DNA from: a plasmid
DNA: 64,000 bases
Strand: one strand, 5' to 3'
NCBI RefSeq assembly: GCF_988243305.1
Contig: NZ_OZ547139.1
The position numbers are program-made. The stretch's first letter is position 1. Every line of letters begins with the position of its first letter. Of this stretch, positions 36,001 to 42,000 are shown in pieces.

Positions 36001-39000
36001 GTCAGTACCGTGGAGCCACGTCCTTTCCTTCGCCCCATAAACGGGAAAACTCGTTCACGTAGGCTTCAGTTACTGCAGGCGCGCCGCTGATCAGCACCAC
36101 ATTTTCCGCATTACGACTGTCTGCGCTGGCGCTGAAGTTAAACGAGCCGGTCAATACGGCGCGGCGGTCAAAGACCATGAATTTATCATGCATGGCCTCG
36201 TAGTTATCGTTGATCCGCACCGCCACGCGGTTATTGGCCAGAAAGTTCACTTCGGTGTACCGGTTGTCGTTCGCTTTGCGATCGGCCACCACCACCACCG
36301 ATACGCCCCGTTTTTTTGCGGCACGCAACGCGCCGGCAACAGGACGACTGGTCAGGCTGTACGCGGCAACCAGAATCTCATGCTGCGCGTGGTCGATTGA
36401 ATCCAGAACCAGATTTAATGCGGTCCCGCCGGGTGAAAACCCGGTTTTCACTTCAGTCGCAGCTTGCGCCTGGACATCGCCGGCAATATTGCCGGCCGCT
36501 GTTACCGGGTTTGCTGCCACGGCGCCGGCGATGAGGGTCAGGGTTAACAGCACATATTTTTTCACGCAGCCCCCTTAATCATCATCCGGGAACAGATGCT
36601 GGACGTTCTTACGGGTTTCTTCCAGATTCCTATCCTCCGGTGCGGCCGGTTCGGGAGTCACGGCGGGACTGTTTTCCGGCGCAGCGCCGCCTGCCGGCGA
36701 CACCGTATTGCTGCCACCGCCGGTGGCCTGCAGAAACGCCTCAACCAGGCGTGCCATCTCTCCTGTATCCTGCTGCGGCAGCGTACTGCTGATGATCCGC
36801 TGAATATCCTGCATCGAGGTGCTCTCCGTCAGAAATTCAGCGATCAGGAACGGCAGGCGTTCGTCTTGTTTCATCAACGCGGCACCACAGAGCATCATGG
36901 CGCGCATCGCGCGGCCACGCTCTTTCTGAGGCAGTTTCTCAAGAAAGCCGTCTGCTACCCGGTCCGCCGCATTGCGCTCCGGGTAGATATAAAACGAGCA
37001 CTTACGGTTATCAGTCATACTCAGCCCTTCATTGCCACCATACCCAGAACCAGATCGAACTGCGGGTTATCACTGACGAAGAAACGATCGTCACTCACCC
37101 CCGTTGCCTGCTTCACTGCGCCGGCGACCAGGCTGGCACCGCCACCGACCACCATGACGTGCGTGAAGCCGGCAAAGCGGCCAACTGAATCGGTGACACG
37201 GTGCGTCAGGGCTTTTTCCCGCTCATGCAGTACCTTCATCACCTGGGCCCGCTGGTCAGCATTCTGGAGGTAACGGGAAAGAAACGTTTCGTCATTTCGC
37301 GCCTGGATCAGACGGTCGGCAAAATACGAACTGGTACGGGTGCTCACGCTGGTATCCAGTGCATGTTTTACGGCTTCGGTGATGATGGATACGCCAGTTT
37401 TAGGATCGCAATGCGTCTTGGTGAAGCCGGACATTTTGCTGCGAACGTGCGCGATATCCAGCGTGGTTCCACCGATATCCACAATCAGCAGGGAGTCCAG
37501 ATCGTCCAGATCCTTCAGCACACTGAAGCCTGCAGGGACCGACTCTGGCAGTACGCTGACTTTACGCACGGTAAAGCTCTCACGCCCCTGAACGGCCACC
37601 GCACGCTTCACGTTCGCTTTTTTCCGCTCGATGTTGGCCATATTAGGCTGATCGTTTTCATCCAGGTACTCGCCCAGCGGCAGCGTCACCACAACATCAA
37701 CCGGCTGCGGTTCAATGCCGGACTGCATCAGGGCATGGTGGATAGCGACGACATTCACATCACTGTACTGATAGCGGGTTTCCGTGGTGCGCACGGCATC
37801 CGGGCTCAGCTGGTCAAAGCTGTACTTTTCCCCGTCAATTTCATAGTTGGCGGAAGCCGGCACCGATGAATCTGTCAGCAATGTCATGGACCATTCGGGC
37901 TTGAAGCTGTTCGGACTGATCAACGTTTTCACTGCGCCTTCTTCCATCCAGGCCAGTTTGATGTTGGTGGAACCGTCATCAACAAAAATACGCATTTTGA
38001 ACCTCACATTGTTTAGAAAAAAACCGTAGAAATCAGGAAAAATACAGCTTTCAAATGGATTATTACGCATCTCTGCTGACGTGTAAAGACAAAAAGATGC
38101 ACCAATATAGAAAAATACAGAAAAATACCGAATAAAAATCAACAAAAGACGGTCAGACCGTCCTGAAAACGGTCTGACATAGAAAGAAAAGGGATTTATT
38201 TAGATTTATACGGAAATATCAGGGAGGGATACAGATTATTCCGGGAGCGTTAAATGACTGTCTGGCAGGCTGAATCGGACGCCATACTGACGACCAACAT
38301 CGAGCGCAAACACGCGCGTGTAGGTTTCTGTGGTTTCCAGCCGGGAATGCCCGGCATAAGCCTGTACAACTTTCAGCGGAACCCCATGCTGGATCAGGTG
38401 CATACAGAAGCTGTGACGGAACGTGTGGCAGGTAACAGGGATACTAAAAGTGACAGAGTCACGTTTTGCGAGGTCCAGTGCCTTCCTGATCCAGTTACGC
38501 GGCGTGTTATCACTCTGCACCGGCCAGAGCAGCTGCTGTTTACCAATACGCAGGGTGGTCAGAAATTCACGCACCTTCCTGACATATTGAGGATCGGTCA
38601 GAGGAACAAGACGGAACACCTCTTCATCCTTGCCCGGCCTGCCGCGGCCACGCTGACGCTGTTTAAGCGTCTTCAGCCGGACAAACGGCCGGGAACCGTC
38701 AAGCTGAAAGCTGGCGCCGGTCAGCGCCAGCGCCTCATTAATACGCGCGCCCGTGTTCCAGAGGGTATCGAAAAGGACCTGCTGGCGCAGGTCTGGCACA
38801 TACCGCAGAAACACCGACACCTCCGGGGCCAGCAGGTATTTGGGTAAATCAGCCTGGCTGGCCATCTCCCGCAGCGCCAGCGCATCGGCATAATCGAAGT
38901 AGGCATATGTCACGCGCCCGGTCCCGATGGCGTCGCTACGTGAATTCTGGGAAATTTGCAGGGGGAAAGTGTTCAATTTTTTAAAATCCGCTAATCAGCC

Positions 39001-42000
39001 GTCAGGCGACTGAATTTTATGAAATTTCTCGCTGAATTCGACCGCATCCTGCATATCAAACGTCATACTGCGGGTGGAGGCGGTCGAGCTCCAGCTTTTC
39101 CCGCCTTCGATTCTGTAAGGGGGTAGGGTCAGTCCGCGTAAAGGCTTGTCATGCCGGGCTGCAAAAACCAGCTGCCCGGCAGATACTTTTAACATCATAG
39201 CAAACATATCCGCGCTGATTCGGCGGCCTTTCAATCCACTCATAACAACCTGTAACTGAATCCTGTACCACGACTTTTGTTGTAAATCTGCTGACCAGAC
39301 TGACCTTCATCTTCACTGAATACCACCATACGGCGGCCGTTAGTCAGTGAATCCATTTTACGCTGTGCGCCATTATCGTCATAACGCACAGGCAGGCACG
39401 CACCTTTATGGCTGTTTTCACTCTCGACGCGGAACACCCTTACCCTGACGGCGTTCTTCCGCACCTGGTCAGGATCTTCACCACTGACCACGCCCGTCAG
39501 TTTCTGAAGCGTATCTGCCGGACTGCTGTACTCAGCCTGGCTGAGATAGCGGCCGTTCGGGGTTAACCAGAAATCCTGGCTGTCACTGACACGGTAGGTT
39601 TCGCCGTGGCTGGCGATGCCTGAGACGTTACAGAAGCGGTCATAATCGGTGGGCTGTCCGGGGAGCATGGCGCACCCTGTCAGCAGCAGTGCCGGCAGGG
39701 CGGCGACGTATCCTTTGAATTTCATGTTGTCTCCTGTTCAGGATGAACCATTTCGGTCGGTGGCCGGTATCCCGGATACGGGATAAACGGCGCATCGGTG
39801 GCAATAAGGTCTAGCAGCTTCTGGCCACTGACCAGGATCATGCGGCTGTCTCCGCGAATGAGCGATTTGGTGCCTTCGCGCGTTTTGCCGGTATGGCAGA
39901 AAAAACCGCGGGCACCGGTGGCGTTCAGCAGGTCGCTGAAGTCACGGACGTGGCCAACGGCAATATAGCTGGTATAGCGTTTGGCCTGGATAAGCCAGGT
40001 CTGGCCATCAATCTTCACACGGCCATCAATCCCGCCGTCACCGGTATACCGGCGGTTACGGATCACTTCAAAGCCCCGGCGTTCAAAGCCTTCAAGCAGC
40101 AGCTCTTCGAACACAAACGGGTCAATCTTGCGCAGATAGGCAATTTTCTGCCCGAAATGCGGAAACGTATTAATTTTATCGATCACACGTACCGCGCTGG
40201 CCTGTTTCCGTTCGTGCCGGCGCCGGCGTCGCCGTGTACCCTGCCAGAGGCCATACAGCAGGATACCCGCAAGGATAAAAGAGCCGACAACATGGATGGA
40301 CTCATTCATTATCGATCCTCAGCACTTCATACTTCAGCTGCCGCAGCAGCCTGTCTTTGCTCATGGTTTTCAGGGTGGGCCATTCCGCTTTCAGCGTCAG
40401 CGCGACGGTGGCAAGTTGTATGGTCCGGGGTACTGTCTCACCGTCCTCATATTTTACCAGGCTGGTACGGCTGATACCGAGCTCAGCCGCGGCGCGTTCC
40501 TGGGTCCAGTTCAGGCCCCGTCGCCACAGGATCAAGTCAAAGCCGGTCAATCCGCCGCACTCCCATGCTCAGTGCCGGGCTTCGTGCCGGCGGGTACGGC
40601 CTCTTTCCCCTGTGCCTTTTTTTCCGCCGGGGCCGGGTAGGCCGAGGCCAGTTGTGCCCGGAAATCACGCCACGCTGACAGCCAGAGCGCATCAGATACC
40701 TGGTCAGACGACAGATTAAGGACCGCATTGCGGTCACGCCAGTGGCTAAATGTCTGAGCCGGAAGGCCGGCACGCCGGCGCAACTGCTGCTCGTCGAAAT
40801 AGGCACACTGAACCAGGAGGTGTCTGACGTTCTGCGGGACAACTTCATCTCTGGCCCCTTCCGGCACAGCCAGCATCCCGGCGCTGCATATACCCTGAAT
40901 GCCCGCCTCGGTATAAATCTGCTGCAGATTGGTATCATCAACCTGCGCAGCGCCGGCGGTGTGCGCCACAACCAGCATGATGCCGGCAATAAGTGGTTTC
41001 TTTATCATGCGTACTCAGCTCCTGGCCGAATCCTGGTGGACTGGCCTGTTATAATCTGCCTGTATTTATAGCCTGAAAATGTTCATATTTGAACATTTTT
41101 TATGTATATTAATTCGACAAATTCGTCATAAACACAACAGGAGACGCGATGGATATCAACTACTACGATAAACATCAGGAAGAATTTGAGGCGGTCACGC
41201 TGGCGCTGAAAGCCAATCTGGAAGAAGTTTGGGGCAGCAGCCTGAAAAATCAGGGGGAAAGCCTGGATGATCAGGTGACGTATATGAAGCTATTTGAAGA
41301 GCTGCAATACAACCTCAATCCGTACTACTTCAAGGAGAACACCTCAGCAAAAGAGATGGATGAAGATAAAGTAGCGGCCTTTGTGGCCAGAACCCGCGAC
41401 TATAAGTACGGCATTACCATTAAATCCTGGCCGGGACTCCCGCAGAAATGGCTGAAAGGCCGAATCAAACCTCTTCATCCTGTGGAAGGCACAAACCTGT
41501 GCTGGATCGACACGTCCAACATTGTGCATATCGGTGCCGATAGGCAGTTTGACGATCAATATTACCTCACCGTGACCACACAGAACGGTCAGAGTTACGG
41601 CACTGTTGCAAATAGTCGGTGGTGATAAACTTATCATCCCCTTTTGCTGATGGAGCTGCACATGAACCCATTCAAAGGCCGGCATTTTCAGCGTGACATC
41701 ATTCTGTGGGCCGTACGCTGGTACTGCAAATACGGCATCAGTTACCGTGAGCTGCAGGAGATGCTGGCTGAACGCGGAGTGAATGTCGATCACTCCACGA
41801 TTTACCGCTGGGTTCAGCGTTATGCGCCTGAAATGGAAAAACGGCTGCGCTGGTACTGGCGTAACCCTTCCGATCTTTGCCCGTGGCACATGGATGAAAC
41901 CTACGTGAAGGTCAATGGCCGCTGGGCGTATCTGTACCGGGCCGTCGACAGCCGGGGCCGCACTGTCGATTTTTATCTCTCCTCCCGTCGTAACAGCAAA

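Follow-up and report, generated by a model that had tools for sequence, protein, structure and literature searches.

The Mrr protein of Escherichia coli is a soluble, modification-dependent restriction enzyme of Type IV with an N-terminal DNA-recognition domain and a catalytic domain of the family PF04471 (Mrr_cat), and it uses the D...QxK variant of the active site. The fusion of a membrane domain to Mrr_cat was described for Epona, encoded by cassettes of Vibrio chromosomal integrons, which has experimentally shown anti-phage activity in E. coli (bioRxiv 10.1101/2024.07.02.601686). Plasmids of the IncN and IncU groups (R46, N3, pKOX105, pNDM-BTR) carry mrr genes, and the IncL/M plasmids pOXA-48, pCTX-M3 and pNDM-HK contain the orf14–orf18 operon, for which published work gives non-essentiality and no function. 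Table S1 of the pOXA-48 study (Baffert et al. 2025, PMC12365149) lists Orf15 as 'HTH-XRE' (HTH, helix-turn-helix) and Orf16 as 'Restriction nuclease / Host defense', together with Orf14, Orf17, Orf18 and ResD. Here we describe the same operon in a 64,000-nucleotide stretch of plasmid DNA (the window; contig NZ_OZ547139.1 of RefSeq assembly GCF_988243305.1), in which all positions are given. According to its predicted structure, the product of orf16 is a PD-(D/E)xK nuclease-fold protein of the Mrr family that retains its catalytic residues and carries a membrane anchor. The annotation of the genes and the 'host defense' guess of the published table are already known. New with respect to the literature searched are the occurrence of the single-pass transmembrane (TM)-Mrr architecture throughout a wide family whose members are linked to conjugative elements of several mating-pair-formation (MPF) types, and an operator common to the IncL/M operon and the ssb operon of the leading region.

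Orf16 shares the catalytic domain family with E. coli Mrr, whereas a TM helix and a basic stalk take the place of the recognition domain, and the protein is about 110 residues shorter. Compared by description only, Epona differs from Orf16 in its holin-like domain with two TM segments and in its location in integron cassettes; Orf16 has one TM helix and is found in conjugative elements. The products of the IncN and IncU mrr genes are approximately 56–60% identical to Orf16 over the basic stretch and the nuclease domain and have the same TM anchor; a homologous small open reading frame (ORF) follows these genes downstream, a lipoprotein gene adjoins them and a resolvase gene lies close by. The IncN operon differs in being headed by the gene for the H-NS-like KorB, in including KikA/TrbM and in lacking homologues of the XRE regulator, Orf14 and Orf17. 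The IncN lipoprotein is unrelated to Orf17, and its gene is located upstream of mrr instead of downstream.

The 2,251-bp operon region of the window is 100% identical to that of pNDM-HK and other IncL/M plasmids, and no sequence difference separates it from the operons of pOXA-48 and pCTX-M3. It matched 1,369 PLSDB records, and in 1,001 of these the match spanned 80% or more of the region. The locus is thus the orf14-orf15-orf16-orf17-orf18(-resD) backbone operon of IncL/M plasmids of the pNDM-HK, pCTX-M3 and pOXA-48 family. RefSeq names its products, in operon order, hypothetical protein, HTH regulator, restriction endonuclease, hypothetical protein and hypothetical protein, and the genes that follow encode a tyrosine recombinase, ParM, a stability protein and a PLD nuclease. 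A preliminary description of the window, made from the sequence alone, had overlooked both how well this backbone is covered by sequences and the link of the nuclease family to conjugative elements. Its view that the operon does not serve a housekeeping function was right, since this is an accessory operon of a plasmid.

Residues 59–169 of Orf16 match the Pfam family Mrr_cat over model positions 1–115 of 115 (E=1.1e-20). No other Pfam domain was significant in the protein; a weak match was obtained to NA-iREase1 (E=0.003), a family of inactive restriction endonucleases (REases). Searches of the Protein Data Bank (PDB) with the Orf16 sequence alone and with a 34-sequence profile gave no meaningful solved relative, and the fold was therefore judged on a predicted model. 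The AlphaFold model, calculated from the alignment of 34 sequences, reached a mean local confidence (pLDDT) of 93.5 and a predicted template-modelling score (pTM) of 0.85. It is composed of one long N-terminal helix (residues 3–46) followed by a nuclease core of the order alpha-beta-beta-beta-alpha-beta, with helices at residues 64–77 and 118–131 and strands at 81–84, 96–100, 103–110 and 134–139. The top Foldseek matches of the model in the PDB were all PD-(D/E)xK nucleases, namely EcoT38I, the FokI cleavage domain, Hjc, Cdn1 and Ecl18kI, each with a probability of 1.00. The nuclease fold, which the preliminary description had assigned to the 195-residue protein by eye and proposed to check by structure prediction, is thus borne out on the predicted model by Pfam, AlphaFold and Foldseek.

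The residues E68, E69, D91, D95, Q108 and K110 are invariant in 34 Orf16 homologues with identities down to 38% (alignment A3). Because the catalytic residues are invariant across homologues, the conservation argues for a working active site of the type E...D...QxK. The dN/dS ratio (nonsynonymous to synonymous substitution rates) of Orf16 is 0.12–0.29. The most hydrophobic stretch of the protein comprises residues 4–22, with the TM helix at approximately residues 7–23, and is followed by the sequence RRRRRRHERK. According to the positive-inside rule, basic residues that flank a TM helix stay on the cytoplasmic side. The nuclease domain of Orf16 should therefore face the cytoplasm, as the polybasic stretch follows the single TM helix. 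The models of PADLOC-DB v2 gave only domain-level matches to Orf16, to the Type IV REase mREase_IV (E=2.8e-8) and to the candidate system PDC-S02, with E values from 2.8e-8 to 1.3e-6 over the two kinds of model. The likeness is confined to the C-terminal Mrr-type nuclease domain: Orf16 covers approximately the last third of these profiles of about 320–540 positions (positions 169–291 of 317 in mREase_IV), and their N-terminal parts are absent from it.

The operon is formed by five minus-strand ORFs arranged head to tail from 41008 to 38995 (Table 1), at the coordinates given in the preliminary description. The genes overlap at TTGA (4 bp), ATGAATGA (8 bp, the orf15/orf16 junction), ATGA (4 bp) and ATGA (4 bp). 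The overlaps and the palindrome in the promoter region agree with the proposal of translationally coupled genes under a palindrome-bearing promoter; the overlaps are not all of 4 bp as had been described, and the operon is probably not limited to five genes. The resD gene begins only 18 bp after orf18, and the sole terminator-like hairpin of the unit is located 3' of resD, with none between orf18 and resD. Therefore, the transcription unit probably contains six genes, orf14–orf18 and resD. Relative to the 79%-identical plasmid lineage L016, dN/dS is 0.09–0.14 for orf15–orf18 and resD and 0.45 for orf14. Judged by these ratios, orf14–orf18 are all real genes under purifying selection. A search of positions 38000–41700 against Rfam found no RNA family.

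Table 1. Coordinates of the orf14–orf18 operon, its flanking genes and the associated regulatory sites in the window.
Feature	Position	Strand	Description
orf14	40547..41008	-	153 aa; signal-peptide-like N-terminus (MIKKPLIAGIMLVVAHTAGA/AQ); fast-evolving; without family match
orf15	40302..40550	-	82 aa; XRE-type HTH; TTG start inside TTGA overlap; putative autorepressor
orf16	39722..40309	-	195 aa; N-terminal TM helix, polybasic stretch, stalk helix and Mrr_cat PD-(D/E)xK domain
orf17	39240..39725	-	161-aa lipoprotein; lipobox LTGC; predicted OB-fold-like beta-barrel; only in IncL/M-like plasmids
orf18	38995..39243	-	82-aa small protein; weak homologue of pN3_038 (small ORF 3' of IncN mrr)
resD	38236..38976	-	Tyrosine recombinase; putative multimer resolvase; NCBIfam XerD/XerC-like, E=1e-20 to 1e-22
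Terminator-like hairpin	38152..38178	-	12-bp stem and T-run 3' of resD; likely end of transcription unit
orf13	41149..41625	+	Divergent gene for 158-aa acidic protein; shares operator region; without family match
Divergent intergenic promoter region	41009..41148	.	140 bp between orf13 and orf14; 40% GC compared with 57% for the operon
Palindrome AAAATGTTCA-TATT-TGAACATTTT	41076..41099	.	Perfect; 10-nt arms, 4-nt spacer; putative operator common to orf13 and orf14 promoters
Second exact operator core TGTTCA-AATA-TGAACA (TGTTCAAATATGAACA)	26498..26513	.	Same element inverted; upstream of orf32-ssb-orf33 promoter
Leading-region orf32-ssb-orf33 promoter	26440..26468		TTGATA-17-TATAAT; near-consensus sigma-70, 11/12

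The gene types that had been called by eye, namely a secreted protein, an XRE-type HTH regulator, a TM-anchored Mrr-like protein and a lipoprotein, agree with the Pfam matches, hydropathy, lipobox and predicted structure. Hydrophobic N-termini are present in Orf14 and Orf16, and the signal peptide of Orf14 was judged by eye and from hydropathy. Orf15 matches the Pfam families HTH_3 (E=2.7e-7), HTH_31 (E=7.5e-6) and HTH_19 (E=1e-5), the NCBIfam RstR-like family (E=2e-8) and the phage family of unknown function phrog_6962 (E=7.5e-21); it is weakly similar to the HTH antitoxin families MqsA, HipB and PezA, and gave only weak HTH matches in PADLOC-DB v2. The lipobox of Orf17 spans residues 15–18 with the cysteine at position 18, and G17 and C18 are invariant in nine homologues (alignment A2). 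No match was found for Orf14, Orf17, Orf18 or Orf13 in Pfam or PHROGs, for Orf14, Orf17 or Orf18 in PADLOC-DB v2, and for Orf13, Orf14, Orf16, Orf17 or Orf18 among NCBIfam families. A profile of Orf18 had no match in the PDB, and its AlpA/Xis-like look is an impression only. The essential XRE regulator of pOXA-48, orf20, was considered as the equivalent of Orf15 and rejected, as orf20 lies at 34906..35385. The region 34906..35884 corresponds to orf19 and orf20 of pOXA-48 (DNDJGHEP_0013/0014), and Orf20 is a 159-residue protein with two XRE-like repeats. In both the transposon sequencing (Tn-seq; PMC12365149) and the CRISPR interference (CRISPRi; PMC12361523) studies, orf20 is reported to be essential for plasmid maintenance.

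Divergent IncL/M-like lineages, in which Orf16 is 67–79% identical, keep the order secreted protein, HTH protein, Mrr, lipoprotein, small ORF, resD and stbA. The resD gene is syntenic in the lineages L013, L014 and L016, and a gene divergent from the operon is also present in L016. In L013, an unrelated membrane protein replaces Orf14, and orf18 is absent. Orf17 is confined to the IncL/M-like plasmid clade, with only about ten full-length representatives at 50% identity, and its distant relatives have no adjacent Mrr gene. Comparisons by blastp and phmmer detected no homology between Orf14 or Orf17 and the envelope proteins encoded beside mrr elsewhere, namely TrbM/KikA, DUF2859, the IncN/IncU lipoprotein and the soluble lytic transglycosylase (SLT). 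The partners therefore appear to form a system only partly, with Orf14 and Orf17 being lineage-specific rather than conserved. Orf18 and the small ORF located 3' of the IncN mrr gene (pN3_038) matched each other in reciprocal phmmer pairs (E=5.5e-5, 7.4e-5 and 1.4e-4; alignment A4). Because of this reciprocal similarity, the pair of Mrr and a small protein may be ancestral to IncL/M and IncN plasmids.

The palindrome at the promoter is real, and its arms are longer (10+4+10) than had been described; no such perfect 24-bp palindrome occurred in 100 shuffles. It is overlapped by promoter-like sites on both strands. A scan identified TTCATA-17-TATATT at 41082..41110 on the plus strand, suitable for orf13, and missed the minus-strand operon promoter TTCAAA-17-TATAAA, which was read by eye. 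The palindrome is kept in L016 with the altered spacer TATC. In L014, the HTH protein of which is only 41% identical, another perfect palindrome, AAAGTATCAA-A-TTGATACTTT, occupies the equivalent position. As the palindrome was swapped where the HTH protein had diverged, Orf15 is its putative binder; the co-variation supports this assignment and is not proof of it.

A search of the window for the operator core with up to two mismatches gave 11 matches where 2.7 were expected, and the two listed in Table 1 are the only exact ones. The second lies about 30 nt from the -35 hexamer of the orf32-ssb-orf33 promoter, on its upstream side; the centre of this copy is about 40 nt upstream of that hexamer and about 70 nt 5' of the likely start site. 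The common core suggests that one regulator links the operon and the orf32-ssb-orf33 locus. The operon is positioned about 17 kb from the origin of transfer (oriT) and nikA, on the leading side opposite the relaxase genes, and the genes in between are co-oriented. An autorepressed operon at such a leading position would give a burst of expression upon entry into a new cell.

Among 5.8 billion proteins searched, 813 relatives of Orf16 were found. Those sampled from Enterobacteria, Serratia, Rhizobium, Achromobacter, Vibrio, Olivibacter and Sphingobacterium have one common architecture of 165–240 residues, into which Orf16 fits: an N-terminal hydrophobic helix, an R/K-rich stretch with RH, a YLRK...FEE motif and Mrr_cat. 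Homologues are encoded by 2,596 plasmids among 72,556 records, 78% of them conjugative and 10% mobilizable. The IncN/IncU clade accounts for 930 plasmids (84% conjugative) and a Citrobacter clade for 28 (61% conjugative), and none of 50,697 phage genomes gave a match at E≤1e-3. In eight of the ten backbones sampled, genes of a type IV secretion system (T4SS), a type IV coupling protein (T4CP) or a relaxase are located within 7 kb of the mrr homologue. As far as these records go, the anchor-plus-Mrr family is specific to conjugative plasmids and integrative and conjugative elements (ICEs), not phages.

The gene contexts of the homologues vary. In IncN and IncU plasmids, the order korB(H-NS)-x-kikA/TrbM-lipoprotein-mrr-small ORF is divergent from traL(SLT)-virB2-3-4. 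The slot directly after mrr and the small ORF of IncN plasmids is variable and holds Type I hsdRSM (L003 8254..12654) or an EcoRII restriction-modification (R-M) system (L010 6133..8814). A Serratia ICE of the ICEclc/PFGI-1 type has SLT-DUF2859-mrr-x-T4CP with a 4-bp overlap, a Vibrio MOBP plasmid T4CP-TraF-x-TopoIII-mrr-SLT, a Citrobacter MOBF plasmid SLT-x-x-mrr adjoining TrwC and T4CP, and a Rhizobium plasmid TrbI-VirB11-T4CP-LPD7-VbhA/Fic-mrr-relaxase; a Sphingobacterium element carries T4CP and RadC. In the Serratia ICE (L007 6001..7406), the TM-Mrr gene and a gene for a 257-residue protein are inserted between the DUF2859 and coupling-protein genes, which are adjacent in ICEclc. The nuclease was considered as a core component of the MPF_G type T4SS, and this was rejected because ICEclc, the type member of the MPF_G ICEs, has no such gene between DUF2859 and T4CP. 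By the same comparison of gene orders, the nuclease is an accessory gene rather than a core part of the T4SS.

We tentatively favour, with somewhat less than even confidence, the reading that Orf16 acts as a nuclease on foreign DNA at the membrane and that the operon is a plasmid-borne module of defence or competition. Orf15 would bind the 24-bp palindrome, which is overlapped by the divergent promoters, and thereby repress the operon; entry of the plasmid into a repressor-free recipient would result in a burst of operon expression. The tethered Orf16 would then cut DNA that appears at the membrane, i.e., that of incoming phages or rival mobile elements. Orf14, in the periplasm, and the OB-fold lipoprotein Orf17 would be lineage-specific envelope accessories, and the module as a whole would be required neither for plasmid maintenance nor for transfer in laboratory matings. 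Defence or competition is favoured because the nuclease domain matches Type IV REase-like domains, R-M systems occupy the cargo slot in IncN plasmids, and Epona provides a precedent, which may be considered the nearest functional analogue. The structural assignments of the preliminary description are thus supported, and the defence, exclusion or DNA-uptake surveillance that it had suggested as function is plausible only. Entry exclusion in pOXA-48 is already explained by excA.

Several observations weigh against defence or competition. Orf16 has no DNA-recognition domain, as its residues 1–46 form one helix made of the TM segment and the basic stalk in the AlphaFold model and by Pfam. No methyltransferase match was found among Orf14, Orf15, Orf17, Orf18, Orf13 and ResD, or in the RefSeq annotation of the flanks. 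Therefore, the specificity of the nuclease for its target is unexplained. No system model of PADLOC-DB v2 fits the whole of Orf16 or the operon. The minus-strand promoter of the operon is weak by consensus, and the pairing of the operator with the HTH protein comes from a single co-variation event in the compared sequences. The frequent placement of the homologues in transfer operons, beside genes for VirB1-like SLT and T4CP, fits a role linked to conjugation at least as well. The Tn-seq study scored orf14–orf18 and resD of pOXA-48 as non-essential, with no significant conjugation defect for orf14–orf18 (PMC12365149). The CRISPRi fitness screen in clinical strains reported significant effects for seven genes or loci, and the operon is not named among these (PMC12361523). 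Both screens were polar on orf16 and included no challenge with phages or competitor plasmids.

The defence or competition reading is only slightly favoured over a role in conjugation or establishment, which is nearly as likely, if doubtful when taken by itself. The tethered nuclease would in that case cooperate with the T4SS or act on DNA that has just been transferred, be it in donor cells or in new transconjugants, and the operon would belong to an 'establishment regulon' of the leading half, co-regulated with orf32-ssb-orf33 through the common palindrome. The homologues within the transfer operons of the Serratia ICE and the IncN/IncU, Citrobacter MOBF, Vibrio and Rhizobium plasmids, the second exact operator copy upstream of the ssb operon promoter, and the leading-side position among co-oriented genes are all consistent with such a role, as is the published 1.87-fold increase in the transfer of pOXA-48 after deletion of orf32. 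However, the second operator is located well upstream of the likely start site and not over the ssb promoter, ICEclc does without the gene, and the Tn-seq log2 fold-changes in conjugation for orf14–orf18, which range from +0.6 to +1.0 with only orf17 reaching an adjusted p of 0.037 (PMC12365149), do not indicate a transfer defect for any of the genes. An addiction function of the kil/kor or toxin-antitoxin type, in which Orf15 would silence a toxic Orf16 and the pair would stabilise the plasmid, is improbable. The HTH gene lies directly upstream of the nuclease gene and overlaps it by 8 bp, its product resembles HTH antitoxins weakly, and the IncN homologue belongs to the operon of kikA ('killing in Klebsiella'), of which korB is the first gene. 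Nevertheless, most homologues have no adjacent HTH gene. In the Tn-seq experiment, all seven TA dinucleotide sites of orf15 tolerated insertions at normal read counts, and the gene was scored as non-essential, although the polarity of the method on orf16 could mask toxicity (PMC12365149). The operon is also not among the genes that the CRISPRi report ties to fitness or plasmid stability.

The probable co-transcription of resD raises the similarly improbable case of a recombination helper, in which Orf16 would be an Hjc-like structure-specific nuclease acting with ResD at the membrane when plasmid multimers are resolved or plasmid DNA is repaired. The absence of a terminator in the 18-bp gap, the synteny of resD in every IncL/M-like lineage sampled, the serine resolvase gene just downstream of mrr in IncN and IncU plasmids and the archaeal Holliday-junction resolvases among the top fold matches would fit this role. 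However, the similarity to Hjc is generic to the PD-(D/E)xK fold, the ICE, Vibrio, Rhizobium and Citrobacter homologues have no adjacent recombinase gene, and the Tn-seq data contain no stability phenotype. The RefSeq name 'restriction endonuclease', the Pfam Mrr_cat match and the mREase_IV domain match of PADLOC would suit a conventional restriction enzyme, be it the partner in a Type II R-M system or a Type IV enzyme like E. coli Mrr. This is very improbable given the TM helix in place of a DNA-recognition domain, PADLOC matches that cover only the C-terminal nuclease part of their models, and the operon and its surroundings being free of methyltransferase genes. The nuclease-fold domain may instead be a non-catalytic tether that only binds DNA and anchors the plasmid to the membrane. 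The weak NA-iREase1 match, which is also precomputed for many homologues, and the lack of a reported loss-of-function phenotype are consistent with this, but the family retains the catalytic E, D and QxK without exception, and inactivated domains usually lose such residues, so that a mere tether is highly improbable.

We speculate, with the odds clearly against it, that single-pass membrane-tethered Mrr nucleases represent a widespread and unstudied accessory function of conjugative elements of at least four MPF types. They would be expressed in a burst on entry and act at the inner membrane, where they would destroy later-entering DNA of phages or rival plasmids or process the transferred DNA. 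In IncL/M plasmids, the nuclease would be wired to the ssb operon through the common operator. If true, such 'entry-site' nucleases would form a new class, separate from both soluble restriction enzymes and entry exclusion. IncL/M (pOXA-48, pNDM-HK, pCTX-M3) and IncN plasmids are major carriers of genes for carbapenemases and extended-spectrum beta-lactamases, and the operon is a strongly conserved part of the IncL/M backbone for which neither genome-wide screen of pOXA-48 reported a phenotype. The membrane anchor, the invariant nuclease active site and the restriction of the family to conjugative elements turn the label 'restriction endonuclease' into a testable hypothesis of plasmid-plasmid or plasmid-phage conflict or of transconjugant establishment. 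If Orf16 limits superinfecting DNA, it would help to decide what combinations of resistance plasmids and phages clinical Enterobacterales can harbour, and phage therapy directed at plasmid-bearing strains could be affected as well. The fold itself is ordinary and the mechanism is conjecture; it is the clinical weight of the plasmids that makes the experiments worthwhile.

In the leading region (26300..28400), several small genes are preceded by repeated elements of about 70 nt (…cgccagtcggggcgctaccg…attatacgtctaatgagcca…); these elements are also seen as the recurring pseudo-peptides SCASRGATV and YYTSNEP in out-of-frame ORFs. At 26446..26480, the imperfect hairpin ACGTCTGATGAG…CTCATTAGACGT encloses the -35 element of the orf32 promoter. 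The repeats and the hairpin may represent single-strand promoters similar to Frpo, or repeated 5' leaders. An antirestriction gene of the ArdB/KlcA type is present at 26860..27300, and genes for anti-defence and for DNA handling occur together in this leading half. In the co-oriented block that separates the operon from oriT, the stretch 31473..33580 encodes a 427-residue DGQHR-domain (DndB-like) protein after an HTH regulator and a JAB/RadC protein.

On the other side of the operon, directly after orf13, a resistance insertion begins (41644..44487). Its first gene is that of the IS26 transposase (41644..42366), confirmed by the RefSeq annotation of pNDM-HK. By-eye reading of the translations identified a QnrB-type pentapeptide-repeat protein (42771..43418, minus strand) and a PspF-like sigma-54 activator (43498..44487, minus strand). 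The spacer of about 240 bp between resD and parM presumably contains the terminator as well as the par promoter and centromere, and possibly also the ResD target site. For the ParM/StbA homologue at 37021..38145, the longest ORF has a TTG start and encodes 374 residues, 50 codons beyond the RefSeq call of 324 residues.

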